Origin: a virus
Virus record (IMG/VR): IMGVR_UViG_3300021335_000003
Strand: one strand, 5' to 3'
Length of the DNA stretch: 64,000 bases
The notes below the pieces were generated by a model. The model was not told the origin of the DNA, did not search any database, and saw nothing but the letters and a program-made list of their open reading frames with translations. Position 1 is the first letter of the stretch, and the number at the start of each line of letters is the position of its first letter. Shown piece after piece: positions 30,549 through 64,000 of the stretch. Both the position numbers and the translations under genes were made by a program.

Positions 30549-30577
30549 TTGACAATCGTAAAAAACTACTATATAAT
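30549..30577 (+). promoter_or_regulatory. Perfect sigma70 consensus promoter TTGACA-N17-TATAAT heading the enzyme cluster
   Basis: -35 at 30549-30554, -10 at 30572-30577, AGGAG RBS, ATG at 30599. Confidence 0.85.
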
Positions 30578-30598
30578 AATACTATATAGGAGAAATAC

Positions 30599-30946
30599 AT
30601 GGACGAACGTCTTCAAAAAGCACTTGATCATAGTAATTACATGGTTACACTTAACAATCAAAAAAGATTGTTAAAAGAACAATATCAAGAAAATTTAGTA
30701 TATTATTTTAACGGCGGGCAGTTCACAGTTACACAAGGATTGGTTAGTTTTTGTCAAAGTTTAGTTAGTCTAAATCAAGACGAAACTATTATAATTGATG
30801 ACAACGATTTGCCTATTGCAGTAGATGATTTAAAAAACTTTTTAAGTGAAATTGTTACCAAATACTTTGAAGCAGCAAATAGTTATCTTGTTGAATACAA
30901 TCAATTAAAGAAAAACAGAACTGTAGAAAGTGTTGTTAATTTATGA
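30599..30946 (+). CDS. Hypothetical protein (115 aa), first gene of the glycosyltransferase operon
   Basis: Good RBS; ATGA overlap with the next gene. Confidence 0.6.
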   Translation: MDERLQKALDHSNYMVTLNNQKRLLKEQYQENLVYYFNGGQFTVTQGLVSFCQSLVSLNQDETIIIDDNDLPIAVDDLKNFLSEIVTKYFEAANSYLVEYNQLKKNRTVESVVNL

Positions 30947-31776
30947 GCAAAGGTGTATTGTTATTTGCCAATAACAATGGAAGTATTGATTACGTAAAAC
31001 AAGCAGTATATTTGGCAAAACGGATTGAAAAGTATTTACAATTACCTGTTAGTTTAGTTACAAGTAACAAATTAACAAAAGAACAATCAAAGGTATTTGA
31101 CCAAATTATTCCATCTACTTTATCGGTAGCAAAAAGCAGTACTAAGCGTCATTGTGACGGCGATATGTATGATAAAATAACTAAATTTTATAATAACGAT
31201 AGAGCATCTGCATATGATTTAACTCCATATGAACAAACTATTGTTATGGATACAGATTTTATTATATCAAACAACTTATTGAATAATTGTTTTATACAAA
31301 ATAAAAACTTTTTAATTTACAAAGATGCTACGCATGTAGGAATACATACTGGTACTCCTGAATTCCAAAGGGTAAGCGATACTAGTATTGACTTTTACTG
31401 GGCAACAGTGTTCTTTTTTAGAAAATCTCAAGATACACAAATATTTTTTGATTTAATAAAACACATTCATGAAAATTATTTGCATTATCGAAGTATGTAT
31501 CAGTTTAGGACCACTGTGTTTAGAAATGATTTTGCATTTAGTATGGCAATACATATTATGAATGGTTATCAAACTGGCGAATTCGCAGGTACATTGCCTG
31601 GTAAAAAGTTTTATGCTATAGACAAAGATGTGTTAATTGATATAGTAGATGATGAAATTAAAATATTAGTTCAAAAAACAAACAGGTTTGGCGAATATAC
31701 TGCTGTAAAATTAAAAGGTAGTAATTGTCATGTAATGAATAAGTTTAGTTTGGAGAGAATTATTGAAAACAAATAA
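30943..31776 (+). CDS. GT-A fold glycosyltransferase-like protein (GT8-like)
   Basis: 'KGVLLFA.N...DY...A..LA..I' start and 'TPYEQTIVMDTDF' DxD motif. Confidence 0.65.
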   Translation: MSKGVLLFANNNGSIDYVKQAVYLAKRIEKYLQLPVSLVTSNKLTKEQSKVFDQIIPSTLSVAKSSTKRHCDGDMYDKITKFYNNDRASAYDLTPYEQTIVMDTDFIISNNLLNNCFIQNKNFLIYKDATHVGIHTGTPEFQRVSDTSIDFYWATVFFFRKSQDTQIFFDLIKHIHENYLHYRSMYQFRTTVFRNDFAFSMAIHIMNGYQTGEFAGTLPGKKFYAIDKDVLIDIVDDEIKILVQKTNRFGEYTAVKLKGSNCHVMNKFSLERIIENK

Positions 31777-32611
31777 TTTTACAATGCTGGCACAAAATAG
31801 TGATTTTGATTATGTAAGGCAAGCATACCTTGCAGCTATGAGTATCAAGGCAACAAACAATAACAGCAAAATTTGTTTAGTAACAAACGATCCAGTTCCT
31901 ACAAAGTATAAACAAGTATTCGATGACATTGTAGATATCCCTTGGGGCGATCATGCCGAAAATGAAAATTGGAAAGTTAGTAATCGTTGGAAAATTTATC
32001 ATGCAATTCCATATACTGAAACTGTTGTTATAGATACTGATATGCTTGTTTTAGACGATTTGTCTTTATGGTTTGATTTTCTGCAAAATTATGATCTATT
32101 TTATACTAGCACAGTGACCACATATAGAGGAGAACAAATTCCAAAAGACTCTCATTATAGAAAAATATTTTATAATTTTAATTTGCCTAATTTATATAAC
32201 GGATTTCATTATTTTAAAAAGAGTGACACAGCACATGAGTTTAATAATTGGTTAGAATTAATTACTAACAATTGGCAACAATTTTATATACAGGTTAATA
32301 ATTCCTTAAAACACCTACCACATCCTAGTATGGATATTACAGCAGCAATAGCAAGTTTAATAATGGATAATCAACATTTAATTACAAATAACAAAACTAG
32401 ATATCCAAGTTTTGTACATATGAAACCAAAAGTACAAAACTGGGTAGATAATTTTAGTTATAGATGGCAAGACAGAGTAGGTGTTTATTTAGATAATGAC
32501 CTCAAATTAAAAATCGGCAATTATCAACAAAATGGTATCTTCCATTACACTGAAAAAGATTTTGTTACAAGTAACATTGTAAAGAAATATGAAACATATT
32601 TAGGAATATAA
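31763..32611 (+). CDS. GT-A fold glycosyltransferase-like protein (GT8-like), paralog of the previous gene
   Basis: TTG start with GGAG RBS; 'PYTETVVIDTDMLVLDD' DxD motif; 'FVHMKP' and 'FHY' motifs. Confidence 0.65.
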   Translation: MKTNNFTMLAQNSDFDYVRQAYLAAMSIKATNNNSKICLVTNDPVPTKYKQVFDDIVDIPWGDHAENENWKVSNRWKIYHAIPYTETVVIDTDMLVLDDLSLWFDFLQNYDLFYTSTVTTYRGEQIPKDSHYRKIFYNFNLPNLYNGFHYFKKSDTAHEFNNWLELITNNWQQFYIQVNNSLKHLPHPSMDITAAIASLIMDNQHLITNNKTRYPSFVHMKPKVQNWVDNFSYRWQDRVGVYLDNDLKLKIGNYQQNGIFHYTEKDFVTSNIVKKYETYLGI

Positions 32612-32613
32612 CG

Positions 32614-33162
32614 ATGCAGATAAAACGTTATGTGTGCTTTGAAGAAGACGGATCTATTTACAAAATTACAAATAAACCAGATGATAGGTTTCAAAACTTA
32701 GAAGTAGATTTTTCTGAGGTAGAGGATTTTATTACAGGTAAACGTAGTTTGTTAGAACACAAAGTTGAGTTTGATTTTATTGAAAAAAAATATAACATCA
32801 AAAGTCAAAAACAACTTAACGATGATAAGCTCATGTGGGCATTTTTATATGAGATTCCTACAACTATGCCGGAAGAAAAGCAAATAGTTATTACAAAAAA
32901 TAACTTAAAAAAACAATGGCAATTGTCAATTGACGAAGAATTTGAAAAACAAATTAATGATCAAAAAATTACAATTGATATGACTAACTATTTCTTTAGT
33001 GTTACTAAACAAAGTGATCCAAACGTGCTGTACAAACTGCTTAACTTTGATGAAACAATGCAATTACCATTTACAGAAGATTTTGAATTTGACGATAGCA
33101 AAATTTCAGTATATACTACACGTAGATTTGATTCTTATTACTACGAGGAAATAAATGAGTAA
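32614..33162 (+). CDS. Hypothetical protein (182 aa, acidic)
   Basis: ORF tightly packed within the operon; no motif recognised. Confidence 0.55.
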   Translation: MQIKRYVCFEEDGSIYKITNKPDDRFQNLEVDFSEVEDFITGKRSLLEHKVEFDFIEKKYNIKSQKQLNDDKLMWAFLYEIPTTMPEEKQIVITKNNLKKQWQLSIDEEFEKQINDQKITIDMTNYFFSVTKQSDPNVLYKLLNFDETMQLPFTEDFEFDDSKISVYTTRRFDSYYYEEINE

Positions 33163-34069
33163 TACATTTAGAGTTGTTGACTATGACATTATCTATCTAA
33201 GTTATGATGAACCAAATGCAGAAAAAAACTTTGCAGATTTAGTAAGCAAATGTCCATGGGCTGAACACGTCAGCGGAGTAAAGGGCAGTGATAGTGCGCA
33301 CAAAGCCGCAGCAGAAAAATCAACAACAGACAGATTTATTACAGTAGATGCTGATAACATTATAAATGATAACTTTTTAAACCAAGTAATCGATTTTGAC
33401 GAAAACACAGATTTGACAAACAAAGTTATAAGTTGGACTGCAAAAAACATTATCAACGGACTTAGTTACGGTAACGGCGGACTAAAGTGTTGGCCTAAAC
33501 AGCATGTGTTAAACATGCGCACACACGAGAATGCACCTGCAGATAATCCACATGCACAAGTAGATTTTTGTTGGGATACACAATATATTCAAATGAACGG
33601 CACATTTAGCACTATTCATAACAATGCTACACCACAACAAGCATGGCGTGCTGGATTCCGTGAAGGTGTTAAAATGGCACTAGATCAGGGTGTGCGTCCA
33701 GACTATGAAGGATTTAAACGCAATCACTGGAAAAACTTACACAGACTTTACATTTGGCTAATGGTAGGAGCCGATGTTGAAAACGGACGTTGGGCAATAC
33801 ATGGTGCTAGAGAAGGTTTATACAAGACCATGTGTACTGACTGGGATTATATTAATGTACGTGATTTTGATTATTTAAACGATTATTGGAGCAATAAAGA
33901 TATTGCCGATATGGAAGAACAAACAGAAGAGCTCGGTGCTAAATTGATACATGAATTAGATATTCCAATTGCAGAAGAATGTTTAAATGCACAACAAAGT
34001 GCATTCTTTAAAAGTGTATATCAAAATCCTGTAAGAGATAACAGTACAAAATTTTTAGATAGAGAGTAA
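33155..34069 (+). CDS. Glycosyltransferase-like protein (GT-A, DxD)
   Basis: 'IIYLSYDEPNA', 'FITVDADN', 'NGLSYGNGGLKCW' and 'AWRAGFREGVK'; paralog of the C-terminal domain of 38579-39613. Confidence 0.6.
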   Translation: MSNTFRVVDYDIIYLSYDEPNAEKNFADLVSKCPWAEHVSGVKGSDSAHKAAAEKSTTDRFITVDADNIINDNFLNQVIDFDENTDLTNKVISWTAKNIINGLSYGNGGLKCWPKQHVLNMRTHENAPADNPHAQVDFCWDTQYIQMNGTFSTIHNNATPQQAWRAGFREGVKMALDQGVRPDYEGFKRNHWKNLHRLYIWLMVGADVENGRWAIHGAREGLYKTMCTDWDYINVRDFDYLNDYWSNKDIADMEEQTEELGAKLIHELDIPIAEECLNAQQSAFFKSVYQNPVRDNSTKFLDRE

Positions 34070-34071
34070 TA

Positions 34072-35445
34072 ATGGAGCGCAGCGAAAGTGAAGAAATAAA
34101 GCGCATTGATGGTATAACACAAGAAATATCACCAACGTTTTGTTTTGCAAAATGGTATCATGCTAACATATATTTCCAAACAGGTGAAACACACAGTTGT
34201 TATCATCCTGCTCCTCATAAGATTGACACAGCACCGTTATTAGAAAATCCAAGTGCAATACACAACACAGCACAAAAGAAACAAGAACGTGCTGCTATGA
34301 TGCGTGGTGAACAACCTAGTGGTTGTAACTACTGTTGGAAAATTGAAGCACTTGGTAAAGATTATGTCAGTGATAGAAAGCAGCGTAATCAAACTATTTT
34401 CTTCAAGCATAGACTGAATGCTGTAAAAGAAGGTGGTGCAGAGTTTGACGTTAATCCAGAATACTTGGAAGTATCATTTGGCAACGAATGTAACTTTAGA
34501 TGCGGATATTGTCATCCAAAAGCAAGCAGCAGATATTATCAAGAAATCAAACAACATGGTCCTTACACAAATGTTAAAAATCACAGATGTGATATTGACT
34601 GGTTTCAGATATTTGAAGAAGAAAACAATCCGTATTTAGATGCGTTTTGGCGTTGGTGGCCTGAGCTTAGTAAAGAGCTGCACATTCTGCGCATTACAGG
34701 CGGAGAGCCAACAATACAACAAAGCACGTACAAACTGTTTGATATGTTAGACGCAGATCCTAAGCCCGAACTAGAACTAAACTGTAACAGCAACTTAGGC
34801 GGCAAACCAAAGCAGTTAGAAAAGTTTACAAACCGTGTAAATGATTTGCTTACAAATAATAAAATTCGACGTTTTAAAATGTTCACTAGTATTGACACTT
34901 GGGGCAAACGTGCAGAATACATACGTGACGGATTAGACATAGAAGTGTTTGAACGCAATTTGGATTATTTTATGCGTAACTGTGAAGCACCTATGGTGTT
35001 GATGATTACGTTTAACATATTCAGTGTAACAACATTCCGCACACTATTAGAAAAGATCTTAGAATGGCGTGCAAAATACAATGATGTAGAAACACACAGA
35101 TGGCAACGTTTGGGTTTTGATACACCGCATCTAAAAGAGCCGCTGCAATATGATATTAACATTTTGCCAAACAACTATATGACCTATATGCGTGACCATT
35201 TGCAGTTTATAAAAGAAAATGTAGATGACAATCGCAAAGATGCGTTTAGCACTATTGAGTATGAAAAATTTAGACGTGTTGTTGATTATATGGATACAAC
35301 AGAATATCCACTAGAAAAAGTTATACAAGGGCGTAGAGATTTCCACAACTTCTTTGAAGAACAAGGACGCAGACGTGGAGTTGATCACAAACAAGTATTT
35401 CCAGAAATGTCAGACTTTTTTGAGTTGTGCAGCAAATACGTCTAG
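34072..35445 (+). CDS. Radical SAM enzyme with N-terminal Twitch/SPASM-like Cys domain
   Basis: CNFRCGYC and ITGGEP; N-terminal C..KW...SCYH...CNYC. Confidence 0.9.
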   Translation: MERSESEEIKRIDGITQEISPTFCFAKWYHANIYFQTGETHSCYHPAPHKIDTAPLLENPSAIHNTAQKKQERAAMMRGEQPSGCNYCWKIEALGKDYVSDRKQRNQTIFFKHRLNAVKEGGAEFDVNPEYLEVSFGNECNFRCGYCHPKASSRYYQEIKQHGPYTNVKNHRCDIDWFQIFEEENNPYLDAFWRWWPELSKELHILRITGGEPTIQQSTYKLFDMLDADPKPELELNCNSNLGGKPKQLEKFTNRVNDLLTNNKIRRFKMFTSIDTWGKRAEYIRDGLDIEVFERNLDYFMRNCEAPMVLMITFNIFSVTTFRTLLEKILEWRAKYNDVETHRWQRLGFDTPHLKEPLQYDINILPNNYMTYMRDHLQFIKENVDDNRKDAFSTIEYEKFRRVVDYMDTTEYPLEKVIQGRRDFHNFFEEQGRRRGVDHKQVFPEMSDFFELCSKYV

Positions 35446-36024
35446 TACCTGTTTTGACTCAGGCCATTGTACTTTAGACAGATCATTTAACCAGTGTTCA
35501 ACATCAACTTTCCAAAATGTTTGGAATGCACCTTTGTACTCTAGTTCAAATGGATCTTTAAGATATCCATGACGTGACATAATTTTAGCCCAAGTTCTAT
35601 GCACTTTGCGTTGGCTTGCTGTTTCTAGGTTATTTGTGCTTACATACATTGGCTTTTCTAGCCCTAAGTAATAAAAACAAGCAGGTGTAAGCATCTGACT
35701 TGTGTGATGATTCATAGGGCTACGATCATTGTTATGTACTTTGTGTCCTCTTATGTCATCTACACGTTCAATAAGCAATGCTGTACGTGCAGCAATACGA
35801 TGTGCATTTTTGCCAAGTATGCCCAATTGTTTTAAACTATGTGTGATTGTTGTACCTATTACTCTGTCTTTATAATACAAAAGTATTAGTGTAGCATCTT
35901 CGTGCTTATCAATATAATCAATAAGCACTGTTTTGTTATGGTTGTTGTAAAAGCCTCTAGCAGCAGCACCTTCGTACCAATCTGCTAGATCTTGTGTTCC
36001 GTCATAAACTTCTAGTCTATACAA
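35410..36024 (-). CDS. Hypothetical protein, possibly GNAT-fold acyltransferase-like
   Basis: Probable TTG start at 36024 overlaps the ligase stop (ORF is open to 36060). Beta-alpha pattern 'LILLYYKDRVIGT...HRIAAR...MYVSTN'; the fold call is weak. Confidence 0.4.
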   Translation of the reverse strand: MYRLEVYDGTQDLADWYEGAAARGFYNNHNKTVLIDYIDKHEDATLILLYYKDRVIGTTITHSLKQLGILGKNAHRIAARTALLIERVDDIRGHKVHNNDRSPMNHHTSQMLTPACFYYLGLEKPMYVSTNNLETASQRKVHRTWAKIMSRHGYLKDPFELEYKGAFQTFWKVDVEHWLNDLSKVQWPESKQVLDVFAAQLKKV

Positions 36025-37006
36025 AAACTTGCGTCCTGTCAATCTTACGTAGATTATCATCTACTTTAATTTCATCTACTTTTTTAGCTTTAATTTCGTA
36101 TGCGCATTTGTGTTGTTTTGTGAACTGTGTAATATCTAAATCGCCTGTGTAATATACAACACATTCGTGTGCAACTTTTCTACATAGTGCTAAACTTGCA
36201 CCATTTTCAATCGCAACTTTTTCAATTTGCTCTGGATAAACTCTGTCACCACAATTTTCCATTTTAAATGCATTGAATCTACGCCCTGATAGTGCAAACT
36301 CATCTGCGTCTGTAAATTCTACTAGATCGCCACTGTTCCACCATTCTGTTTGATCTTTGTACTTGCAGCAGAACTCAGTTGTGCCATCATCGTGTTTCTC
36401 AAACTTGTATTCAATATTAGGATTTATATCACTAAACTTATACACGTCTTGGCGTTCTGTGCTCATAATAACCGGAGGTACTTCTGTGCTGCCGTAACCT
36501 GTGTTAACCTGTTTTGCTCCTTTTGAACGCAAATCTTCCATTAGTCCTGTAGGAGTAATGTCACTGCCTACCTGCATTTGCTTCATACAACTTAAATCCA
36601 AGTTTTTCCATTTCTTGTGTCTATGCCAAGTTTTCCAAACATTAGGAAGTATCAACATATTTGTCGGCTGTACTTCACGAATTCTATCTGGTAGATTGGC
36701 AACTGTTGTCTCAATAAATGTATCACAGTTTGCAACGTGACAAGGATATAGGCTCATACTTGTAAAACCAATGCCTCTAGGATTGTATAATGCCATCATA
36801 CTACTGTTTGAATCAAGCATGAAATATTCTGCATTGTATTCTGCAACTTTGCGCATTAGTTTTGCACTGTGTTGATATGTTTTAGGATTACCAGTTGTAC
36901 CGCTGGTAGTCACTGTAATATTCCAATTTTCTAAATAGTTAATAACTGCTGATCTCACGTGATCATTGTTACTTTCCATATAGGGTATGCCGTCAATATA
37001 GATCAT
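36017..37006 (-). CDS. Compact adenylate-forming (acyl-CoA synthetase/AMP-binding) enzyme
   Basis: TTSGTTGNPK (A3), GYGSTE (A5), SGDL (A7), GR (A8), 'VYPEQIE' and RKIDR (A10); GGAGG RBS. Confidence 0.85.
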   Translation of the reverse strand: MIYIDGIPYMESNNDHVRSAVINYLENWNITVTTSGTTGNPKTYQHSAKLMRKVAEYNAEYFMLDSNSSMMALYNPRGIGFTSMSLYPCHVANCDTFIETTVANLPDRIREVQPTNMLILPNVWKTWHRHKKWKNLDLSCMKQMQVGSDITPTGLMEDLRSKGAKQVNTGYGSTEVPPVIMSTERQDVYKFSDINPNIEYKFEKHDDGTTEFCCKYKDQTEWWNSGDLVEFTDADEFALSGRRFNAFKMENCGDRVYPEQIEKVAIENGASLALCRKVAHECVVYYTGDLDITQFTKQHKCAYEIKAKKVDEIKVDDNLRKIDRTQVFV

Positions 37007-37036
37007 GCTGAATACACCTCCAAATTTGTAATTTTA

Positions 37037-37064
37037 ATTATAGCACAGATTTAGTGTAAGTCAA
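37037..37064 (-). promoter_or_regulatory. Sigma70-type promoter TTGACT-N16-TATAAT with extended -10 (TGc)
   Basis: Minus strand: -35 at 37064-37059, -10 at 37042-37037, upstream of the ligase and overlapping the end of the fibre-like gene. Confidence 0.65.
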
Positions 37065-38508
37065 TCCAATTGTTACCATCGTAACCTTGAAATTTATTAG
37101 TATTAACATTAAAGATAATCATGCCTGCTTCAGCAACCATGCTATCTCTATCTGCAAAAGTAGTACCTCTTGCTTTGAATACCGGTACAGTTAAAACACC
37201 ATCACCGTCAAAGCTCAAACGTCTTGGATTTGTTTGGTCGTGATTATCACTGCCTTTTGGCAAACTCACAACAAATTTACTTTCTACATATGTATCAGTT
37301 GGTGCTGCATCTGCATAGATACCAAACAAGCCACCAGTAACAAAATCTGATCCATTGTAACCTTCGCCTGAAACAATTGCTAGTGGATTATCTGTTCCTA
37401 CAGCAGTTTTTGCATTTACTGTTCCGTTGTATTTTTTAACATTTAAAAATTCTTCATCTGCACTAGTTTCCACTGTGATTGCATCTGAAAAAATATTCAC
37501 ATCGCAATCAATTGCATCCGTAATATAGCCACCAATTGTTACTACACCATTTACGGGGTGTAACACTGTTCCTTGCGCACTAGCAGTTAAAGCATCTTGC
37601 GCACCGTTTTCATCACTGTATATAAAGTTACCATCAAAATTTCCTCTAATAGTAGCAGGTGCAGTATCACAGTCTGGATCAATAGGATCGTGTAGTGTAA
37701 TAATTTCTTGGCCATTGTAATGATGCACATGCGCACGTAATGCAGTATCTGCTCTTGTAGCGCCAAGCATGACAATCGGGCCACGGGCTAAGTCATCATC
37801 GGCAGGTGCTATATGGTGTTCTAATCCACCGTAAAAACTATATTGAGGATGAGTTATTGTAGTGTTTAAGTTTGTTATGTTTGTGGTATCTGGAGCACCT
37901 TCGTATGTGTCTAAATTTGTACCGATTAAATGCCCGTTTAAATTACCTACAATATTACCTGTAACGTTACCTACCAAATCTCCTGTAACATCGCCTGTGT
38001 GTTCGCCTACACTGTTACCAAAAAATTCACCATATGAAGTACCATTGAAGTCTCCACTGAATGTGCCATACACAACACCTTCACTTGTGATGTTTCCATA
38101 TACATCACCATATAGATCGCCTGTAATTGTTGTAGCAGTTACAGTTCTATTTGTAGCATCAACGATTGTTGTACCTTCTGGATCAACAACGTTTCCATAA
38201 ACAGGAGCATTGATTCTAGCATTTATACCGTCAATAAGTTTTGTTGCGCCACTGTTATCATATACACTACCTGATACATCTGCTTTAAACAAACGTTCGC
38301 TTGCATTATATACAACATTACCTTCTGGATCGTGTATATCACCAACCAATGGTCCATACAATTTTCCTGTAGATACATCAACTTGTATTAATCCTTCGTT
38401 GGATACAACATCTGCTTTAATAACACCTTGCCAACTATCAACAAGTGTAGATTCATCTGCGCCTACAATATCTAATCTATATGCTTCACCTGGTATAAAA
38501 TCTGCCAT
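37051..38508 (-). CDS. Fibre-like virion protein embedded in the enzyme cluster
   Basis: G-D/N-V/L-x tetrapeptide repeats (GDVTGDLVGNVTGNIVGNLNG) as in 22905-24923; C-terminal 'RDSMVAEAGMIIFNVNTNKFQGYDGNNW'; GGAGG RBS. Confidence 0.7.
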   Translation of the reverse strand: MADFIPGEAYRLDIVGADESTLVDSWQGVIKADVVSNEGLIQVDVSTGKLYGPLVGDIHDPEGNVVYNASERLFKADVSGSVYDNSGATKLIDGINARINAPVYGNVVDPEGTTIVDATNRTVTATTITGDLYGDVYGNITSEGVVYGTFSGDFNGTSYGEFFGNSVGEHTGDVTGDLVGNVTGNIVGNLNGHLIGTNLDTYEGAPDTTNITNLNTTITHPQYSFYGGLEHHIAPADDDLARGPIVMLGATRADTALRAHVHHYNGQEIITLHDPIDPDCDTAPATIRGNFDGNFIYSDENGAQDALTASAQGTVLHPVNGVVTIGGYITDAIDCDVNIFSDAITVETSADEEFLNVKKYNGTVNAKTAVGTDNPLAIVSGEGYNGSDFVTGGLFGIYADAAPTDTYVESKFVVSLPKGSDNHDQTNPRRLSFDGDGVLTVPVFKARGTTFADRDSMVAEAGMIIFNVNTNKFQGYDGNNWIDLH

Positions 38509-38525
38509 AACGTCCTCCGCTACAT

Positions 38526-38533
38526 TATTTATC
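38526..38533 (-). promoter_or_regulatory. Putative late promoter (GATAAATA) for the embedded fibre-like gene
   Basis: Same motif as 4547, 22272 and 26808, on the minus strand 18 nt upstream of the start. Confidence 0.6.
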
Positions 38534-38543
38534 TATTCTGTTC

Positions 38544-38572
38544 TTGACTTCGAAGTTAAGTTATCATATAAT
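38544..38572 (+). promoter_or_regulatory. Sigma70-type promoter TTGACT-N17-TATAAT (likely leaderless transcript)
   Basis: -35 at 38544-38549, -10 at 38567-38572, ATG at 38579, no SD. Confidence 0.75.
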
Positions 38573-40640: not shown

Positions 40641-40851
40641 TTTAGATGTTAGGCAATTGCAAAAGGAAAGTGCAAGAGCACTAAGCACTATGCAAGCTAC
40701 AAATAATAATATTTGGCAGTTTAACAAAAAAGCACACCATAATAGCCAAAATTGGTATAAAGCAGTAATTGAATGGTACATAGAGCAATATGGCGATTTA
40801 CCAAGCAAGACCGGACCTGGCAAGGATGTAAAGTTAATATACGATGTATAA
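40627..40851 (+). CDS. Small hypothetical protein (74 aa)
   Basis: TTG start; overlaps both neighbours and exactly fills the gap in the operon. Confidence 0.6.
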   Translation: MDINDLDVRQLQKESARALSTMQATNNNIWQFNKKAHHNSQNWYKAVIEWYIEQYGDLPSKTGPGKDVKLIYDV

Positions 40852-42990: not shown

Positions 42991-43032
42991 TCATATGACA
43001 AATAACTACGTATATAATAAGGTAAGTATAAT

Positions 43033-52906: not shown

Positions 52907-52910
52907 AATT

Positions 52911-53933: not shown

Positions 53934-53934
53934 T

Positions 53935-56536: not shown

Positions 56537-56556
56537 GTAAGAATAGATGTTATAAT
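56528..56556 (+). promoter_or_regulatory. Sigma70-type promoter TTGACG-N17-TATAAT (likely leaderless transcript)
   Basis: -35 at 56528-56533, -10 at 56551-56556, ATG at 56562, no SD. Confidence 0.7.
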
Positions 56557-56561
56557 TAAGA

Positions 56562-57674
56562 ATGAACGAAAATTTAAAATGGTCAAATTATGACTTCACT
56601 AAAATACCGTTTGATGATATTGTCAGTGTTGGCCAACGTACTCTTTTGTATCGTGATATATTTACAGTATCTTGGTTGTTAGGCAGATTTTGTAACTATA
56701 GATGTAGTTACTGCTGGCCCTATGCAAGAAGTGATAGGAAAGATCATAGACCAACTGAATTATGTTTAAAAACAATTGATGAAATAAAAAGGCAAGCACG
56801 TGAAAACAGTTTTAACAGTTTCCATTTTAGCCTTAGTGGCGGCGAGCCAACTTTCCATCCTGGTTACTTAGATATTTTACAGCATCTTGCCGATGATGTT
56901 GATAATACCAATTATACCTCTGTCCATATGACATCAAACTGTAGCCGTCCAATGAGTTGGTTTGAAGATTATGTAGAACGTGTAAAGCTATTTCATAGAG
57001 CAAGTATTACAGCCAGCCTACATACAGAACACTTAAATACTCGTGAGAAGATGCAAGACTTTGCAGACAAGTTGATATTGTGTCAGGAGCATGATGTACA
57101 GGTTACGATCAATATGGTTATGGTTCCGGACTGGTTTGAGCGTGATTGGGAAAACGCTCTATTCTTTCATGAGCAAGGTATTAATGTCACCCTTAAACCG
57201 CAGTCCGACCCTACGGCGTCAAGAATCGTTGAAGGATACAAAGAAGAAGATTTGAAACGTTTATGGAATGGTATGCCACAACGTGCATACACAGAAAGCA
57301 AACGTGTATGGGCAGAACGTCCAAAGCCAAAGTTTGAAATACCCAAAGATGCATATCACAAACCAGATGCAAGTGTTCCATGGCATTTCCAAGTAGAGTT
57401 TAGAGACAAAGACGGTAAAGCATGGTATATGGATCAAGCAGAACGTTTTAATGCTTTCAACTTTAACAAGTTTAAAGGCTGGAGTTGTAATGCTGGTTAT
57501 CAAGGTATTATCATTCGTGAGCCTGATGGTAGTGTAAAACGTTCATACAGTTGCCATGATGTTCCAATTGGCAATATAGAAACTGGATTTAAACTATTTG
57601 ATAAACCAATGCCTTGTATTACAGAAAGTTGTGTAAGTAGTGCAGATAGTAAAATACCAAAAAGAAAGTTATAA
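56562..57674 (+). CDS. Radical SAM enzyme (paralog type of 51141-52277)
   Basis: WLLGRFCNYRCSYC and LSGGEP; C-terminal FKGWSC...SC...PCITESC. Confidence 0.9.
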   Translation: MNENLKWSNYDFTKIPFDDIVSVGQRTLLYRDIFTVSWLLGRFCNYRCSYCWPYARSDRKDHRPTELCLKTIDEIKRQARENSFNSFHFSLSGGEPTFHPGYLDILQHLADDVDNTNYTSVHMTSNCSRPMSWFEDYVERVKLFHRASITASLHTEHLNTREKMQDFADKLILCQEHDVQVTINMVMVPDWFERDWENALFFHEQGINVTLKPQSDPTASRIVEGYKEEDLKRLWNGMPQRAYTESKRVWAERPKPKFEIPKDAYHKPDASVPWHFQVEFRDKDGKAWYMDQAERFNAFNFNKFKGWSCNAGYQGIIIREPDGSVKRSYSCHDVPIGNIETGFKLFDKPMPCITESCVSSADSKIPKRKL

Positions 57675-59222
57675 CATTTGCCAAAATTCATGTGTTTGAC
57701 GGTTAGGATCACTTTCCCAACCTAGTACTTGTTTTACATATTCATCTTCTAATTTTAGATCCGTGCTGTGTTCTAATTTATGTATTTTATTTACAATGTC
57801 TCTATCTTCAACATCACCTACTAGTTGTCCACCAGTGCCATAAACACTATTAGTTCCTAACCCAAATTCTTCAGCCCATTTTATCAAATCTTTACGTCTT
57901 GCGTTTCGGATTTTCATATTGTTTATTTCTTTTCCGTTAGTTACTACCCAATCTCCGTTATCATCTACATAGTATTCAAACATATTTTCATAAAACACAG
58001 GAGAACCCGGAAATACTAACATTGTAGTCCCAACTTCGATTTGTTTGATAGGATTGCCTGCAAATTGTCTGTTATTTTTCATCCATTCATAATTTTCTTT
58101 ATGATGTTTTTCTAGTTCGCCAGGATAACCCACAATCATTAAGAGTACTAAATTTATTTTATATTTTTTGTAATGTTCTAAATTTTCATGCATTATTTTG
58201 TTAGAGAATTTTTTACGCATATGATCACGCACTTCTTCGCTAAAACTTTCAACTCCAATAATCATGCTATGCCATCTTGCTTTTCGCATTTTTTTAAATA
58301 TACGTTCAGGCATTCTTTTAAATATTGCAAGCCCTTGCATTCCTTTAAATGGCGAACCCGCAGCAATAATTAGATCAAGTAACTCTTCAAATTGTTTTGT
58401 GTTACCATTTACTAAGCTATCATAAAAGAAAAACCTATCAATGCCATAAGTATTTTTGTAGTGCATCATTTCGTCAAATATGTTTTGTGCGCTACGCCAA
58501 CGGAATTTGGGCCAATATGCTTCTACATCACAAAATGTACATTTTCTAACACAGCCTCTACTACCAATAATTGCTAGTTCGTTACGCTTTTTATATTTTA
58601 CATCTCTTACTTGATCACCTACAGGAGAACCTCCTGTGTATTGTGTTACATCTAAACCTGTATAGTCTGGAATTGCCAGATTGTCTAAATTGTCTATTTG
58701 TTTTGTTTTTATTATACCAGGTTTATATTTTCCTTTTACAATATCAGGTAACACTTCCTCACCTTCACTTAACACTACAAAATCTGCAAGACCCATTTCT
58801 ATTATATGTTTGCCGTATTGTGTCATAGGAGCACCTCCTGCAATTATAAGTTTTGCAGGGTCTAATTTTTTAACTTCTGTAGCAAGTTTTTTAAATGTAG
58901 GCAAACTTCTATGACTAAAACAACTTATACCAATATGTGTATGATTTGTAGAAACAATTTCTTTTGCCCAAGAACATATTTCGTCATCGTACATTTCTTC
59001 GCAAAACTGTTTAAATTCTTCACCTTTAAACAATGTTTGATCTGTTTCTAACCAAATACTGTGCCATTTGTCTGTGTGTATTGTTTTTTGCCATAAGTCA
59101 AAATTAAAGTCACGTATTTGTACATCTACTCCATGCTTTTTACAAGCGCCTTGTAAAAAACCAAGACTCAAAGGTGGCACATTTACACTGTGCTTTGGTA
59201 TTACACATAAAAATAAACTCAC
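57669..59222 (-). CDS. Cobalamin (B12)-binding radical SAM enzyme (class B methyltransferase-like)
   Basis: PPLSLGFL, 'IGISCFS', IIAGGA, 'EGEE', SRGCVRKCTFC, 'IGVESFS' and 'IVGYPGE'. Confidence 0.9.
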   Translation of the reverse strand: MSLFLCVIPKHSVNVPPLSLGFLQGACKKHGVDVQIRDFNFDLWQKTIHTDKWHSIWLETDQTLFKGEEFKQFCEEMYDDEICSWAKEIVSTNHTHIGISCFSHRSLPTFKKLATEVKKLDPAKLIIAGGAPMTQYGKHIIEMGLADFVVLSEGEEVLPDIVKGKYKPGIIKTKQIDNLDNLAIPDYTGLDVTQYTGGSPVGDQVRDVKYKKRNELAIIGSRGCVRKCTFCDVEAYWPKFRWRSAQNIFDEMMHYKNTYGIDRFFFYDSLVNGNTKQFEELLDLIIAAGSPFKGMQGLAIFKRMPERIFKKMRKARWHSMIIGVESFSEEVRDHMRKKFSNKIMHENLEHYKKYKINLVLLMIVGYPGELEKHHKENYEWMKNNRQFAGNPIKQIEVGTTMLVFPGSPVFYENMFEYYVDDNGDWVVTNGKEINNMKIRNARRKDLIKWAEEFGLGTNSVYGTGGQLVGDVEDRDIVNKIHKLEHSTDLKLEDEYVKQVLGWESDPNRQTHEFWQML

Positions 59223-60415
59223 ACGTTATCCCAAATCATTTTATCATTACACATTTTAAAAAGTATTCCTGTACGTGTATTTAATAAACTTGCGTGTTCG
59301 CCTACGTGTTCAACAGCAACATTTACAAAGTAAGCTCTTCCTGGTTTAAACATATATTCAACACGTTTTTCAAACGTCATTTTCATTTCAGCAAATGGAA
59401 TTATAATTCTAAATCCTTGTGTTGTATAATCTTCGTGATCCTTATGAGATTTTGTTTTCCATCCTTTGTGAGTAGTAATATAATTTACTCTGCATATATC
59501 ATCAAACTTATCTAACAAATCTCTAGTAGCAGGACCTACTGACTCTTTTAATTCTAAACTTCCTGGTTTGTTTAAACTTACACCTTGATATACACTACTT
59601 CTAAATCCCAGGTATGTCATTAAAATTATGTTTATACTTGGACTTATTACAAAATCATTTAGGCGTTTAAGCATATAATTATCTTTTTTATCAAAATCAT
59701 CAAATTCTTTTTGTAGAACATCTACATCTACAGATAATCCTAAATCTACAACATAAGGATATTTTTCTGGTTGTGTAGGATATTTTGCTTTTACAGGTAA
59801 AGTTTCCTCATTTTTCATTTCAAGAAGATATGGATCGTATTTTTTAAAAAGTTTTTCAAAATCTATACTAAAAATATGTTGATCTACACCATTAAGACTT
59901 TTTATACCTTTGTAATCAAATTCTTGATGCAAGATGTTTCCTGCTACATCTGCATAGCCTTTGTGTTTTAAAGCCCGCACTTGTGCAGTCATTTTTCTGT
60001 TATACTCATATACAGTTAATATTAATTCTTTTTTACCTAACTCGCAAGCTCTTATGGATTGATGTGTTAAAAACCCAAATTCTTTGAAATTTAAACTTCT
60101 AAATTTTGCTCTTTTAGATTTAAGTGTATATGTTAAATATCCACCTCTATAAGTGTTGTTATCAATTTCATATCCTGCACTAATCGCAACATTAGGCATC
60201 AACCACACTTTATCTATTTTTTCATCGTTCCATTTTACATTAGATGCTTTATATGCATTCTGATATTCTTCTTCGCTTAGTTTATTATTTGTTATTCTTT
60301 TTAGTTTGTTTAAGCCATAATTCATATAACTTAAAGGCAAATTTAAATCTTCTTCAAATATTTTTTCTCTAAATTTAGTAATTTTAGGATCATCTTTATC
60401 TAACATAATTATCAT
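59219..60415 (-). CDS. Two-domain protein: unknown (possibly GNAT-like) N-terminus plus C-terminal Asp/Asn beta-hydroxylase-like Fe(II)/2OG oxygenase
   Basis: C-terminal 'RVNY...SHKDH...RIIIP...GRAYFVNVAVEH...R' HxD...H facial triad, similar to 63039-63752. Confidence 0.6.
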   Translation of the reverse strand: MIIMLDKDDPKITKFREKIFEEDLNLPLSYMNYGLNKLKRITNNKLSEEEYQNAYKASNVKWNDEKIDKVWLMPNVAISAGYEIDNNTYRGGYLTYTLKSKRAKFRSLNFKEFGFLTHQSIRACELGKKELILTVYEYNRKMTAQVRALKHKGYADVAGNILHQEFDYKGIKSLNGVDQHIFSIDFEKLFKKYDPYLLEMKNEETLPVKAKYPTQPEKYPYVVDLGLSVDVDVLQKEFDDFDKKDNYMLKRLNDFVISPSINIILMTYLGFRSSVYQGVSLNKPGSLELKESVGPATRDLLDKFDDICRVNYITTHKGWKTKSHKDHEDYTTQGFRIIIPFAEMKMTFEKRVEYMFKPGRAYFVNVAVEHVGEHASLLNTRTGILFKMCNDKMIWDNV

Positions 60416-61173
60416 TTTAAAGATTCCTTTTTCATCAAAAACTTTTCAATAATCCAACCATCTAAGTCCCATTCCCACCATTTGACTTTTGTAGTATAAC
60501 TGCCAGGATTAGCATGATGATTGTTATGCCATCCGCTTCCACCAAAAGTTGCATAAAGATTTACCCACCAATTATTTGTGCTTTGGTCTTTTGTTTCAAA
60601 ATTTCTATATCCAAATTTATGACATAGTATGTTTATTGCTGCACCACTTAAAAGTCCTGTTGCTCCTGGAATAGCAAATAGATAAATTGCAATACGTGGA
60701 TCTATAATAAATGCAACTATTAATGTTAAATACCAAATTGTAAAGTACCAATCACGCAAAAATTTATGAAATGGATTTCGTAGCAAATCTCTAACTACAC
60801 TAGGATTTACTGGAACTTTATCATTTAACCAAAAAAATGTTTTCCAAGTTTCTGAAGCAGGATGAGGATCACCTTCCCTATCACTGTTTTTATGATGTAC
60901 TCTATGATTAGCCGTCCAAGTTAAACTAGGACCAAAACCACCATATACTCCTAAGAATGTTAAAATGTTTTCTACTGTTCTGCTTGTAGTAAAACTTCTA
61001 TGCGATAGTAATCTATGATAACCAATTTCTAAACCTAAATTAGCAAATATATATTTTCCAAACACAGATAACAGTAGCCATATAGGATCCCAATAAAATA
61101 TTAAACCAATAATGCTTGTTATGTAAAGCACTGATTGTAAAAATAATAGTTTTTGATGAAAAGTTTTTAACAT
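60412..61173 (-). CDS. Membrane fatty-acid desaturase (delta-9/OLE1/DesC-like)
   Basis: His boxes HRLLSH, HRVHH and HNNHH; 'SDREGDPH'; hydrophobic TM segments. Confidence 0.9.
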   Translation of the reverse strand: MLKTFHQKLLFLQSVLYITSIIGLIFYWDPIWLLLSVFGKYIFANLGLEIGYHRLLSHRSFTTSRTVENILTFLGVYGGFGPSLTWTANHRVHHKNSDREGDPHPASETWKTFFWLNDKVPVNPSVVRDLLRNPFHKFLRDWYFTIWYLTLIVAFIIDPRIAIYLFAIPGATGLLSGAAINILCHKFGYRNFETKDQSTNNWWVNLYATFGGSGWHNNHHANPGSYTTKVKWWEWDLDGWIIEKFLMKKESLK

Positions 61174-61176
61174 TTT

Positions 61177-61974
61177 TTAACCTTCTAAATATAAATCTAC
61201 TTCTTCTGATCCTTGTATGTGTAATGCATAACTGTTTGATTGTTTTGCTTTTACAATTTGTTCTTGTAATGTATGCTTCAACTGTCTTTTTACATTTGCA
61301 TCTTTATATTGTATATAGTTTGTAGGATGAAATACATCGCTTTGATAAATTGAAACTTGTTCGCTATGTGTAGTATATCCATTGACATCGCAGAATTTTT
61401 TTGCAACATGTGTTGTTAGCATAGGTCCATTACCATAATCTACATAACTAAATCTTTTATCTACAGGCAAGTCTAATTGTTCTAAAAAAGCATCAAGCAT
61501 TTCATTTATAAATTTTCCTCTTGGCTCACTGCCTATTAAATTATTACAAAGGTATATGTCTGTATTGTAAAAATTATAAACATTTACAAAGTTCTTTACG
61601 CAATCTCTTAAACTTAAACCTGTTGGTGTTTTTTTAAGTTTTTTATTTTCTGGTATATGCGGAAATTGATATGTGCAAAAAGCAGGAGTACTTAAAAAAT
61701 TTTTTATATCTTTTAAAAACATAACATCTAAATCTGCATACACTCCGCCATATTTTTTTAAAATGCATAATCTGACATAATCTGAAATCATGGTTGGACC
61801 ATAGTGTTTTTTTAAATACTTGTAGGTTTTGTCGTTTCTAAATTCTGCTTCTATATTTTCATCACGCCAATTAGTAATTCTAAAGTTTGGCATAGCATCA
61901 CGCCAAGTTGGCGTAAAATCAAAAGTAGGTATTTTTTCACCTATCCAAACATTATGTAGAACACTAGGTATCAT
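61177..61974 (-). CDS. Glycosyltransferase, GT32/OCH1-like (DxD sugar-binding)
   Basis: MIPSVLHNVWIG, SDYVRL..L..YGGVYADLDV and 'GPMLTT'. Confidence 0.85.
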   Translation of the reverse strand: MIPSVLHNVWIGEKIPTFDFTPTWRDAMPNFRITNWRDENIEAEFRNDKTYKYLKKHYGPTMISDYVRLCILKKYGGVYADLDVMFLKDIKNFLSTPAFCTYQFPHIPENKKLKKTPTGLSLRDCVKNFVNVYNFYNTDIYLCNNLIGSEPRGKFINEMLDAFLEQLDLPVDKRFSYVDYGNGPMLTTHVAKKFCDVNGYTTHSEQVSIYQSDVFHPTNYIQYKDANVKRQLKHTLQEQIVKAKQSNSYALHIQGSEEVDLYLEG

Positions 61975-62554
61975 GTAAAATTCTATCTAATTCGTTAAAT
62001 GATATATTTGATTGCCAATTACAAGCAACTCTATAATGATTATCAGGATGATCAGGTATAAGTTCATATGCCCCATGAAGTATTTTTGTATTCATAATAT
62101 GAGGAGTTGACATATTATGCACTTCAGCAGGTTCAAACCAATCGCAATGTTGAATTGTGTATTCTATACCACCTGGAGCAATCCTATCTACATCATAAAT
62201 TTTGTCCTTAGGAGGATCATAAAATGCTGTACCTGCCCCTTCACTATGTACAACAGGAAAAAATAAACTACCTTCTTTATCGTGATTATGTGGCTCACAT
62301 TGATAAAGCTGCTTCGACGGATCATTATAAGATAAAAATAAAATACCTGGCGTCAAATTAAGAGAATTTTTAAATTCAGATAAAATAGGAAATTTATCGT
62401 ACATAATTTTTAGAGTTTCTTCAGTAGATCCTGCATAATGCATATATTTGTACCTACCTTGAAAACGTTTGTCATTTTGCACAAGATTCCATACACCTTT
62501 AATTGCTTCAAATACATCATGTATAATAGGATTATCAATTTCTTTCACATACAT
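61964..62554 (-). CDS. Hypothetical protein, possibly cupin/2OG-Fe(II) oxygenase-like
   Basis: 'PHNH...LFFPV...GTAFY...PHIMNTKILHG...RVA' pattern. Confidence 0.45.
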   Translation of the reverse strand: MYVKEIDNPIIHDVFEAIKGVWNLVQNDKRFQGRYKYMHYAGSTEETLKIMYDKFPILSEFKNSLNLTPGILFLSYNDPSKQLYQCEPHNHDKEGSLFFPVVHSEGAGTAFYDPPKDKIYDVDRIAPGGIEYTIQHCDWFEPAEVHNMSTPHIMNTKILHGAYELIPDHPDNHYRVACNWQSNISFNELDRILHDT

Positions 62555-62556
62555 AA

Positions 62557-63042
62557 TTAAAACCTTTTATTGATTGTAATATAATTATCATATTTTTTGT
62601 GCCAACCTGTGATTTCTTCAATTTCCGAAAAATATGTTTTCCAGTTTTTATTCCAGTCTTCGTAATCTTTATAGAAAAAATTTAATTTGCCTATGTTATC
62701 ATTTTTCCAATTAATCCAGGCGTAATAAATATCTTCTGTTTTCTTTTCTTCTTTGTTAGGAAAATTATGAGATACCCAAAAATCTACTCTGCGTTTCTTT
62801 ATACTTTTCCAAAATGCGTCAAAATCTTTACAGGTTGCAATGTAAAATACATTTGGATCTAATTCTAGCAATGAACCAGAAGGTCCGTGTATATTGTAGT
62901 AAGCAGGATTTTGTCCTAATGGTGTTAAGTGCTTCCAAAATGTTTGTTTGCGTGTTACTGTAAAGTTTTCTTTTACAGTAGCATGTAACCAGTTTGTGCC
63001 AGTTCGTTGCAAACCAATTACATGATAATGTTTGTACTTCAC
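62557..63042 (-). CDS. Sulfotransferase-like (P-loop) protein
   Basis: 'IGLQRTGTNWL' resembles the PAPS 5'-phosphosulfate-binding motif; also 'WKH' and 'YED'; GTG start. Confidence 0.55.
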   Translation of the reverse strand: MKYKHYHVIGLQRTGTNWLHATVKENFTVTRKQTFWKHLTPLGQNPAYYNIHGPSGSLLELDPNVFYIATCKDFDAFWKSIKKRRVDFWVSHNFPNKEEKKTEDIYYAWINWKNDNIGKLNFFYKDYEDWNKNWKTYFSEIEEITGWHKKYDNYITINKRF

Positions 63043-63752
63043 ATAAGAACCTTTTGACTATCCAAACTTATTATTAAATGATTGCGAGGAGTATTTCCTC
63101 CATTTACAGCATAATGTTTTACACCTGGATTTACCAGCCAAACACTACCATCAGCAGGAATATGCTCTCTATATTCGTTACCGTCTTTATCCCAACCGCC
63201 GTTAAAACATTTATCATTAGTTTCTAGTGCAATGTGCAGTCTTATACCATAAAGTGTGTCATAGTCTATATGAGGTTTAACTTCGCTATGTGGTGCTAGA
63301 TTTGCAAATCGAGTCCTGTGCGACCCTGTGAACGTGTCGAGTACCTCACGTAAATACAAAGGAACATCATCTTTAACTTTTCTATACCAGCGTTCATCTG
63401 CTTTAGGATCACGTTTTGCTACTCTTGTATCCCAAGCACTACCACTTAATTCAGTCCTTTGGCTTATATCATATGACTCGTCAAACTCAGTCAAACTTAA
63501 TTGTTGATAACTAGACGTTTCCCAGTCTAAATCACAAACACAATCAACTTTCTCTAGTTCTTCTTCTTTGAAAAACATTTTTGGAAGTTTAGTATGTGTT
63601 TCGCACATATGAGCGTAGTCACTGCCAAGCCCATCCCAAACTTTGTCTGCTGCAAACTGATTTAATTCTTCCTTGAGTCTTTTGATGTCAAATCTGTAAT
63701 CAAGTCTAGCAATGACTGGTAGTTCGTGTCGTCCTTTCCAGCTACTTGACAT
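63039..63752 (-). CDS. Aspartyl/asparaginyl beta-hydroxylase-like (LpxO-like) Fe(II)/2OG oxygenase
   Basis: 'RTRFANLAPHSEVKPHIDY...RLHIAL...HIPADGSVWLVNPGVKHYAVNGG..PRNHLII'; ATG at 63752 with GGAGG RBS. Confidence 0.8.
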   Translation of the reverse strand: MSSSWKGRHELPVIARLDYRFDIKRLKEELNQFAADKVWDGLGSDYAHMCETHTKLPKMFFKEEELEKVDCVCDLDWETSSYQQLSLTEFDESYDISQRTELSGSAWDTRVAKRDPKADERWYRKVKDDVPLYLREVLDTFTGSHRTRFANLAPHSEVKPHIDYDTLYGIRLHIALETNDKCFNGGWDKDGNEYREHIPADGSVWLVNPGVKHYAVNGGNTPRNHLIISLDSQKVLM

Positions 63753-63779
63753 TTTAACCTCCAATATACTTCTCCAACT

Positions 63780-63788
63780 GTATTTAAT
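63780..63788 (-). promoter_or_regulatory. Putative late promoter (ATTAAATAC) upstream of the hydroxylase-to-B12-rSAM operon
   Basis: TAAATA core at 63786-63781 on the minus strand, in the intergenic gap. Confidence 0.45.
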
Positions 63789-63791
63789 CCT

Positions 63792-64000
63792 TTAGACCAC
63801 AGGTGTGGTTTTATCTTTGATGAATATTTTTTCAATTATCCAACCAATCAAATCATATCTGTGTAATCTGTACTTATTTGGATTATCATGATGCACATCA
63901 TGGAAAGCATCACCAAATGTAATTAAAGCTAACCAAAGAACGGTTCTTGGTTGATAATCTTTATGTGCCCAACTTAAAACTAAAGTTCCAAAAAACAAAG
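63792..64000 (-). CDS. C-terminal part of a second fatty-acid desaturase (truncated by window end)
   Basis: 'SWAH...LALITFGDAFHDVHHDNP...DLIGWIIE' mirrors the C-terminus of 60412-61173. Confidence 0.8.
   Translation of the reverse strand, partial: LFFGTLVLSWAHKDYQPRTVLWLALITFGDAFHDVHHDNPNKYRLHRYDLIGWIIEKIFIKDKTTPVV

Follow-up and report, generated by a model that had tools for sequence, protein, structure and literature searches.

Positions 30549 to 64000 of a 64,000-nucleotide stretch of viral DNA (IMG/VR record IMGVR_UViG_3300021335_000003; this whole stretch is called the window here) form an island of enzyme genes, among which are 12 radical S-adenosylmethionine (SAM) genes, directly behind the baseplate and tail-fibre genes of a phage. 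From its sequence, the source is an uncultured, abundant marine jumbo myovirus, distantly related to the Rak2/Atu_ph07 group. The reading that we favour, to which we give a probability of roughly 45%, is that this is a lineage-wide accessory island for the radical tailoring of nucleotide-activated sugars, with the acceptor left open. Its core would consist of two plus-strand arrays, 30599-35445 and 38579-57674, read from host-type sigma-70 promoters and encoding 11 anciently diverged radical SAM enzymes, two QueC-fold enzymes, two proteins resembling glycosyltransferases (GTs) of the GT-A fold, methyltransferases and a small accessory-domain protein. Sugar tailoring is favoured owing to the GT-A-like pair, a GT recognized by Pfam, an FkbM-family methyltransferase and the sugar-nucleotide genes found in relatives and in a second phage lineage, and the glycan-type tailoring proposed in an earlier note on this DNA fits the same evidence. 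That note had described the 33 kb as one biosynthetic super-cluster for virion decoration. The feature is real and abundant and the observation was mostly right, and virion decoration is possible, the argument for it being position; however, judged from the sequence, the stretch is not one cluster but several transcription units, at least four, one of them a strain-specific replaceable block.

In the proposed scheme, every radical SAM paralog would make a single oxygen-independent change in a nucleotide-activated sugar or an intermediate resembling one, the candidate changes being dehydrogenation, epimerization, deoxygenation and C-C or C-methyl chemistry. The QueC-like enzymes may adenylate a carboxylate and convert it to an amide or nitrile, the methyltransferases would cap hydroxyl or amino groups, and the GT-A-like proteins would move the product onto an acceptor, which might be the host envelope, DNA or virion proteins. 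Separate from this pathway, as add-ons, would be the genes of the minus strand: a fibre-like late gene accompanied by an adenylating enzyme, and a strain-specific block of lipid or glycolipid type. Radical SAM enzymes carry out hard chemistry, and the family NF033640, catalogued but never assayed, is expanded here to 6-13 copies per phage genome. The identity of the product would define a new viral biosynthesis (a glycan coat, or a DNA or protein modification) together with new enzymes acting on sugars or nucleotides.

All 12 radical SAM genes are intact and each contains one CX3CX2C motif (12/12 by Pfam, NCBIfam and a motif check), in agreement with the number counted earlier, including one B12-binding enzyme; the other 11 have auxiliary-cluster domains. 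All-against-all blastp comparison divides them into group A (six members), group B (three), group C (two) and the single B12-binding enzyme; genes are named here by their lower coordinate. In group A (34072, 43766, 46001, 48656, 49828 and 54600), a cysteine-rich N-terminal (twitch) domain precedes the core. The NF033640 (N_Twi_rSAM) scan took in four of these, which score 298 (34072), 426 (43766), 188 (46001) and 368 bits (49828) against a cut-off of 170, while 48656 and 54600 were grouped by blastp and alignment. The six paralogs all keep C27, C90, C93, C146, C150 and C153, five have a CC pair, and the N-terminal domain gives SPASM Pfam matches at residues 9-94 and 18-80. Group B (40844, 41920 and 52884) has a C-terminal SPASM-like cysteine cluster with a non-canonical CxxxCPxC, lacking the aromatic residue and the GGE motif, and group C (51141 and 56562) consists of generic radical SAM proteins. 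The B12-binding enzyme (57669-59222, minus strand) shows weak lipid-methylase matches.

The plus-strand members are distributed along both arrays. The N-twitch gene 34072-35445 closes the first, and in the second the two group B genes (40844-42990) are followed by the N-twitch genes 43766-45166 and 46001-47329, by 48656 and 49828 with the group C gene 51141 behind them (48656-52277), and by a segment at 52884-57674 that contains 52884, a 222-amino-acid open reading frame (ORF) at 53935, the N-twitch gene 54600, a 255-amino-acid ORF at 55769 and 56562. The paralogs are only 20-34% identical to one another, yet each orthologue is 60-98% conserved among relatives, which argues for distinct, selected functions. 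The best-conserved N-twitch enzyme, 43766, serves as the island anchor: it has 2145 homologues at E < 1e-5, and 159 orthologous viral loci were found in IMG/VR; in the 80 of them that were listed it is 82-98% identical.

When the N-twitch profile was compared with solved proteins, the nearest sequences were viperin, SkfB, BlsE, MoaA and YydG (E 1.6e-8 to 0.01), which act on nucleotides, nucleoside sugars or peptides, and the twitch domain of BtrN aligns with the N-terminal domain of the profile. A radical SAM core with an auxiliary-cluster domain is common to the island enzymes, to BtrN and BlsE (sugars and nucleosides) and to viperin and MoaA (nucleotides). However, the order is inverted in the N-twitch enzymes, with the twitch domain at the N-terminus, and the identity is too low to transfer a substrate or a reaction.

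The two PP-loop ATPases of QueC fold (copy 1, 45153-46004; copy 2, 47298-48152; both plus strand) are 30% identical to each other and contain an invariant SGGADS (S48-S53) and the invariant cysteines C227, C256, C259 and C262 (C...CxxCxxC). The model of copy 2 (predicted local distance difference test score, pLDDT, 85) has QueC as its top fold match, with VIA Z scores of 15.0 and 14.6 for QueC, 13.7 for Cap9, 12.2 for QatC and 11-12.8 for generic PP-loop enzymes, so that the earlier assignment of two QueC-like proteins stands. SGGxDS, the C-terminal Cys4 zinc motif and the fold are common to the pair and to QueC, Cap9 and QatC; unlike QueC, the island copies are two, diverged and paired with radical SAM genes. 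Neither copy matches the QueC family hidden Markov model (HMM) above its cut-off, the only matches being weak ones to TilS_N/PP-loop families, and the identity to QueC is 13-18%. The two genes adjoin radical SAM genes and not a FolE-QueD-QueE operon, FolE lying tens of kilobases away in relatives.

The protein encoded at 38579-39613 (plus strand; model pLDDT 81) is GT-A-like, with a nucleotide-diphospho-sugar transferase fold and invariant D174 and D176. Its structural matches, over residues 115-255, include B4GALNT1 (VIA Z 11.4, r.m.s.d. 2.9 over 138 residues), IspD (10.5), the S-glycosyltransferases ThuS (10.3) and SunS, A64R, R699 and TarP. Its C-terminal part has a paralog in the GT-A-like protein 33155-34069 (plus strand; blastp E 3e-22), and the invariant DxD is common to both. 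Pfam and NCBIfam gave no match for either protein, for which an Atlas lead to Glycos_transf_2 at 0.87 was the only indication of a family. Together with the DXD glycosyltransferase of the minus strand (61177-61974; PF04488 above the cut-off), these account for three of the five GT-like genes reported earlier; the other two found no support. A GT-A-like fold with DxD is also known from chlorovirus A64R, Mimivirus R699 and phage enzymes of the TarP/GtrB-type GT2 class, although those systems operate without radical SAM enzymes.

Two methyltransferases had been proposed. The FkbM-family enzyme (52274-52906, plus strand) is confirmed by Pfam (PF05050, E 9e-14) and has a counterpart in 0/80 related loci. 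The other, 39597-40640 (plus strand), combines five N-terminal repeats with a class-I methyltransferase-like C-terminal domain and is a lead only, from alignment and from Atlas clusters of Methyltransf_31, PCMT and NAS; Pfam gave no match. The repeats (39597-40000) are tandem, 22 amino acids each, with the consensus EDLRKAV.E.N.HS.FRLL. Sequence profile searches of the PDB with the GT-like, methyltransferase-like and PP-loop alignments yielded nothing significant. The 187-amino-acid protein at 48136-48699 (plus strand), previously called a short-chain dehydrogenase/reductase (SDR), gives a weak partial match to that family under the cut-off and is 61-95% conserved in relatives.

Enzymes that make or modify sugar nucleotides come into view outside the window. 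In three relatives (G001, G002 and G005), NAD-dependent epimerase/dehydratase matches and short partial DegT-like matches lie inside the radical SAM islands, and in G004 and G005 a GT-B gene adjoins an epimerase near FolE. A second phage lineage, represented by three contigs, carries a radical SAM array that ends with a carbamoyltransferase, followed closely in two of the three by DegT and a 4,6-dehydratase; one contig of this lineage (L084) keeps the leading cassette 30599-34072 in the same order. The N-twitch family is even more expanded elsewhere, G001 and G002 having 11 and 13 genes over the NF033640 cut-off and 17 and 20 radical-SAM-like matches overall, while none of 14 control bacterial genomes reaches that cut-off.

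Near-identical island DNA occurs in marsh, seawater and marine metagenomes from many studies, which makes it probable that the chemistry is ecologically common; some marsh or seawater samples contain 0.9 or more of the sequence words sampled. The position of the island is constant and its content is mosaic: 38579, 39597, a gene for a 74-amino-acid protein, 40844, 41920, 43766, 51141 and 56562 act as anchors, and the other paralogs vary. The order wedge-fibres-island is kept in five relatives, at wedge identities of 54-65% and, in one, 35%. This synteny comparison bears out the link to the fibre genes proposed in the earlier note, and unlinked clusters were not seen among these loci.

A possible alternative is that the island modifies proteins or peptides, the SPASM/twitch enzymes and the 74-amino-acid domain cross-linking, epimerizing or maturing a phage or host protein, perhaps one of the virion, and the QueC-like and GT-like enzymes adding groups, in the manner of pathways for peptides (RiPPs) that are made on the ribosome and modified after translation. 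The best NCBIfam matches of groups B and C, though weak, are the peptide and cofactor maturases MftC, PqqE, PapB, YhhB and a W-cofactor maturase, and SkfB and YydG are among the nearest solved relatives; the N-twitch family, however, scores far under every peptide-maturase cut-off. Cap9 and QatC, which belong to the same QueC-fold clade, have been solved in complex with protein partners, ThuS and SunS appear among the GT-A matches, and among the island genes is one for a fibre-like protein. On the other side, the sugar-nucleotide enzymes recur in related islands.

The small protein bears on this alternative from both directions. Its gene, previously unannotated (40627-40851, plus strand), fills an apparent 203-nucleotide gap at 40641-40843 and is conserved in 68 of the 80 related loci (identity 74-100%; column identity 85% on average); the methyltransferase-like gene always directly precedes it. 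Elsewhere, the domain is fused to the N-terminus of 40844-type proteins (436-446 amino acids) and to the C-terminus of group C-like proteins (414 amino acids), which identifies it as a radical SAM accessory domain. Being found free or fused at either end of a radical SAM protein, it resembles the RRE and PqqD domains of RiPP systems. However, it contains no cysteine and is conserved from end to end, and neither it nor any island protein matches PqqD or RRE. Pfam and solved structures likewise gave no match, apart from low-complexity-like matches to designed armadillo repeats, and the window holds no second copy. A small precursor-like ORF with a variable core was not found in the island, in which the genes are packed and leave no further free space. 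A predicted complex of the methyltransferase-like and 74-amino-acid proteins scored 0.00, which speaks neither for nor against binding. Protein modification is kept alive by the accessory domain, the maturase-like matches and the resemblance to Cap9 and QatC, but we consider it rather improbable.

The promoters divide the enzymes of the island from the structural genes beside it. The heptamer ATAAATA occurs six times in the 64 kb, against 46.9 +/- 6.5 expected (about eightfold under-represented), and TATAAATA does not occur at all, against 13 expected. The six sites lie at 4548, 22273, 26809, 38532 (minus strand), 40209 and 62725, and four of them read GATAAATA, 5-25 nucleotides upstream of gene starts. 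The genes so preceded are the structural genes 4559, 22303 and 26840 and, inside the island, the minus-strand ORF 37051-38508. By analogy with T4-type late promoters, GATAAATA is probably the late-promoter motif of the phage. The ORF 37051-38508 encodes a fibre-like structural protein, recognized by alignment from its Gly-x repeats and a conserved C-terminal motif; GATAAATA stands 18 nucleotides upstream and is kept in 7/7 orthologues examined, and the gene itself is among the most variable of the island, at 33-81% identity.

Within the island, by contrast, the small number of gaps between genes hold sigma-70 consensus promoters in sense orientation. A perfect one (TTGACA-17-TATAAT, 12/12) lies at 30549-30577, within the 50-nucleotide gap that precedes the first island gene, and matches of 11/12 are found at 38544-38572 on the plus strand and at 37064-37037 on the minus strand. 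A further promoter of this type, TTGACG-17-TATAAT (within 56537-56562, plus strand), belongs to 56562 and ends six nucleotides ahead of its ATG. Among orthologues, scores of 11-12/12 are reached by 17 of 28 promoters for 56562 and by 8/8 for 36017, whereas control genes within operons score 7-9. The true start of 38579-39613 is probably the ATG at 38579, six nucleotides past the -10 box of promoter 38544-38572. At both 38579 and 56562 the -10 box ends 5-7 nucleotides ahead of the ATG and there is no Shine-Dalgarno sequence, an arrangement pointing to early messages that are leaderless or nearly so.

Across the structural module's first 20 kb, gaps preceding genes contain no sigma-70 match of at least 11/12. 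From this difference in promoter placement, the island enzymes are probably made early or middle in infection, unlike the adjacent tail genes. For the attachment of the product to tail or baseplate proteins, as proposed earlier, adjacency is the argument, and the sigma-70-type promoters of the island contrast with GATAAATA on structural genes. In the source study, two metatranscriptomes treated with DNase yielded contigs that match pieces of the 36-56 kb interval at no less than 99% identity, covering 23-24 of 30 bins; two low-support joints (shorter-side match of 20-24 letters) were left out of this comparison, strand, starts and level are not shown by such contigs, and the uncovered bins carry no meaning. 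They are consistent with transcription of the island and are not proof of it.

The early-looking promoters lead to a second alternative, in which the enzymes build or elaborate a modified base (a 7-deazaguanine derivative would be one example) or an altered nucleotide for the phage DNA that shields the phage from host restriction. The DNA-modification genes of T4 are likewise expressed early. The alternative also draws on the two QueC-fold enzymes, on FolE in the same accessory region of all four relatives checked, on the thymidylate synthase (ThyA) and dihydrofolate reductase (DHFR) genes directly behind the array in a 99%-identical strain (L092), on viperin and MoaA, which act on nucleotides, and on strain-level mosaicism, which would suit an arms race with restriction systems. 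However, to our knowledge no known pathway of DNA hypermodification employs more than one radical SAM enzyme, the QueC-like proteins are remote from QueC in sequence, as described above, and the kinase and transferase of known thymidine-hypermodification systems were not seen in family scans of the window. The DHFR gene beside ThyA suggests ordinary dTMP synthesis. The DNA transglycosylase family PF01702 has no match in the four relatives, a weak argument given the divergence of phage DpdA and a contig completeness of 38-72%. On balance, a nucleotide or DNA modification seems unlikely to be the function of the island.

Comparison with strain L092 also delimits the minus-strand block. Its identity to the window is 99.0% from 44600 and stops exactly at 57674, beyond which a hydroxylase-like gene, ThyA, DHFR and an HNH gene stand in place of the genes from the B12 radical SAM enzyme to the GT, so that this block is a replaceable cassette. 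In the window, the block (57669-64000, minus strand; from Pfam and the strain comparison) consists of the B12 radical SAM gene, a 398-amino-acid ORF, a fatty-acid desaturase (60412-61173; Pfam, above cut-off), the DXD GT, two family-less ORFs, an Asp/Asn beta-hydroxylase-like gene (63039-63764; Pfam, above cut-off) and another desaturase, truncated where the window stops. The latter is whole in the locus L093, so that the desaturases named earlier are borne out. In L093 (16719-18696), past the point corresponding to the window end, this desaturase is followed by a 798-amino-acid protein with a weak Peptidase_S8 match.

A third alternative is that the 33 kb are no pathway at all but a hypervariable collection of independent auxiliary genes (morons) between the tail and nucleotide-metabolism modules, with several substrates that include, for the minus-strand block, host lipids or lipid A. 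The presence of at least four transcription units with differing promoter classes, the strong variation of gene content among relatives, the swap of a block of six or more genes between 99%-identical strains and the occurrence of the anchor radical SAM gene alone elsewhere all agree with this explanation, as does the composition of the block itself: desaturases, a hydroxylase resembling the LpxO family, a glycolipid-type GT and a B12 radical SAM enzyme with weak lipid-methylase matches. However, an ordered core (38579, 39597, the 74-amino-acid gene, 40844, 41920, 43766, 51141 and 56562) persists down to 35% wedge identity with its genes overlapping and translationally coupled, and the repeated pairing of radical SAM and QueC-like genes suggests coupled steps. 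We therefore regard a mere collection of unrelated genes as a quite unlikely account of the island as a whole.

Several results weigh against sugar tailoring, beginning with the maturase-like matches of groups B and C and the protein partners of the QueC-fold clade given above. No island enzyme is tied to a substrate, and NF033640 is without a characterized member. The GT-A-like fold is inseparable from that of IspD-type nucleotidyltransferases (Z 10.5 against 11.4). Within the window, no nucleotide-sugar synthase, epimerase or aminotransferase reaches the threshold, such genes being found in relatives only, and about 14 island ORFs have no detectable family in Pfam, NCBIfam or PHROG. Finally, a lone 43766 orthologue of 57% identity is present at 9959-11365 of a phage-like contig (L095; JANWZV010000008.1) binned as a Candidatus Dojkabacteria metagenome-assembled genome, which suggests an enzyme acting on a common cellular metabolite and not on a pathway intermediate. 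The neighbours of this lone gene are a zeta-toxin-like kinase, a DUF2201/VWA protein, a MoxR ATPase and a 5'-3' exonuclease.

As for the acceptor of a tailored sugar, the adjacent fibres and the embedded fibre-like gene point to the virion, and the early-type promoters, the QueC fold, FolE and the neighbouring ThyA/DHFR genes to DNA or nucleotides. With sigma-70-type promoters on the island, ThyA/DHFR on its other side in strain L092 and FolE in the same accessory region of relatives, position fails to separate the virion, DNA and the host surface as targets. A bolder version of the sugar-tailoring reading, which we put forward only tentatively and consider doubtful, is that the N-twitch enzymes constitute a novel class that edits NDP-sugars (nucleoside diphosphate sugars) or nucleotides independently of oxygen, and that a strain-variable set of 11-20 early enzymes produces combinatorial, hyper-tailored sugars on the virion or on deazaguanine-containing DNA. 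If true, this would be a viral counterpart to bacterial O-antigen diversity, made by radical chemistry. Experiments could start from the classes of promoter, from the cassette exchanged between strains and from the small accessory domain with its radical SAM fusions.

The closest published case is that of the T4-like Campylobacter phages CP220 and CPt10, which carry 11-12 radical SAM genes in exchangeable modules with no function assigned (Timms et al., 2010; PMC2853527). Like them, the island has a radical SAM array, but host, partner genes and habitat differ. Three of its radical SAM enzymes, used as tblastn queries, found no orthology to the Campylobacter phages. The earlier statement that no characterized phage pathway has so many radical SAM enzymes still holds, although arrays of 11-12 were thus on record in 2010. 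No study of radical SAM arrays in marine jumbo phages was found in the literature searched. With respect to NF033640, the island genes conform to the family architecture, an N-terminal four-cysteine domain followed by CX3CX2C, and differ in being expanded to six copies, or 11-13 in relatives. Two N-twitch-like radical SAM genes also lie at 10001-12772 of a 2.16-Mb bacterial contig (L083), where they adjoin DarT, an SLFN/AlbA_2 ATPase and large family-less proteins and have the look of a defence island.

Among cultured phages, megablast of the island DNA against 50,697 phage records gave zero matches, and the same three tblastn queries gave weak matches only (RsoM2USA, Vibrio K566/K567 and Pelagibacter phage Mosig), so that a cultured carrier was not found; the annotated gene surroundings of the weak matches in K566 and RsoM2USA were uninformative.

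The remaining island genes are less readily classified, and the description of nearly every ORF as an enzyme was overstated, given the ORFs without a family. As had been noted before, the window's part of the island contains no replication or nucleotide-metabolism gene. The leading cassette (30599-33162, plus strand) has four ORFs of 115, 277, 282 and 182 amino acids without a Pfam, NCBIfam or PHROG match, of which 30943 and 31763 are paralogs, and a family-less 246-amino-acid ORF at 43033-43773 (plus strand) is present in few relatives. The adenylating ligase of the earlier description (36017-37006, minus strand; PF00501, E 5e-13, above the cut-off) holds as an AMP-binding, adenylate-forming enzyme, but is truncated, matching profile positions 170-337 only; its own sigma-70-type promoter is the one at 37064-37037. 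Behind it lies a 216-amino-acid ORF (35410-36060, minus strand) with a faint FeeM/GNAT-like hint; this Pfam FeeM match, under the cut-off at E 0.03, is all that was found for the GNAT-like protein. The three SGNH-like proteins were reduced to one sub-threshold Lipase_GDSL_2 match (E 0.17), and the sulfotransferase-like protein to a sub-threshold match at E 0.09.

On the other side of the island, bases 1-30548 (plus strand) form a myovirus baseplate and fibre module with a hub/lysozyme protein, a gp25-like wedge protein, a 1154-amino-acid wedge protein, a giant protein of 4587 amino acids and three fibre paralogs. The wedge protein is 33-36% identical to its counterparts in Atu_ph07, SCTP-2 and Rak2-like jumbo phages, and for the hub protein the identity to its PA5oct and K64-1 counterparts is 28-32%. 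A cyanophage origin was considered and rejected, given the absence of psbA from the relatives and the Rak2/Atu_ph07-like baseplate. In the giant ORF (8513-22276), of which the first 1496 amino acids were scanned, residues 1452-1483 match the carbohydrate-binding module CBM_5_12. The three consecutive fibre genes (22905-28414) are about 32% identical over their N-terminal 260 or so amino acids and differ in their C-termini, and at least one bears a tail-collar domain; they are likely to be an exchangeable receptor-binding set. The ORF at 29385-30548, taken for a fibre in the earlier note, has an 11/12 sigma-70-type promoter and no family match, and one of its domains recurs in 28436-29338. The early region may have its left edge at 29339-30548 instead of at 30549.

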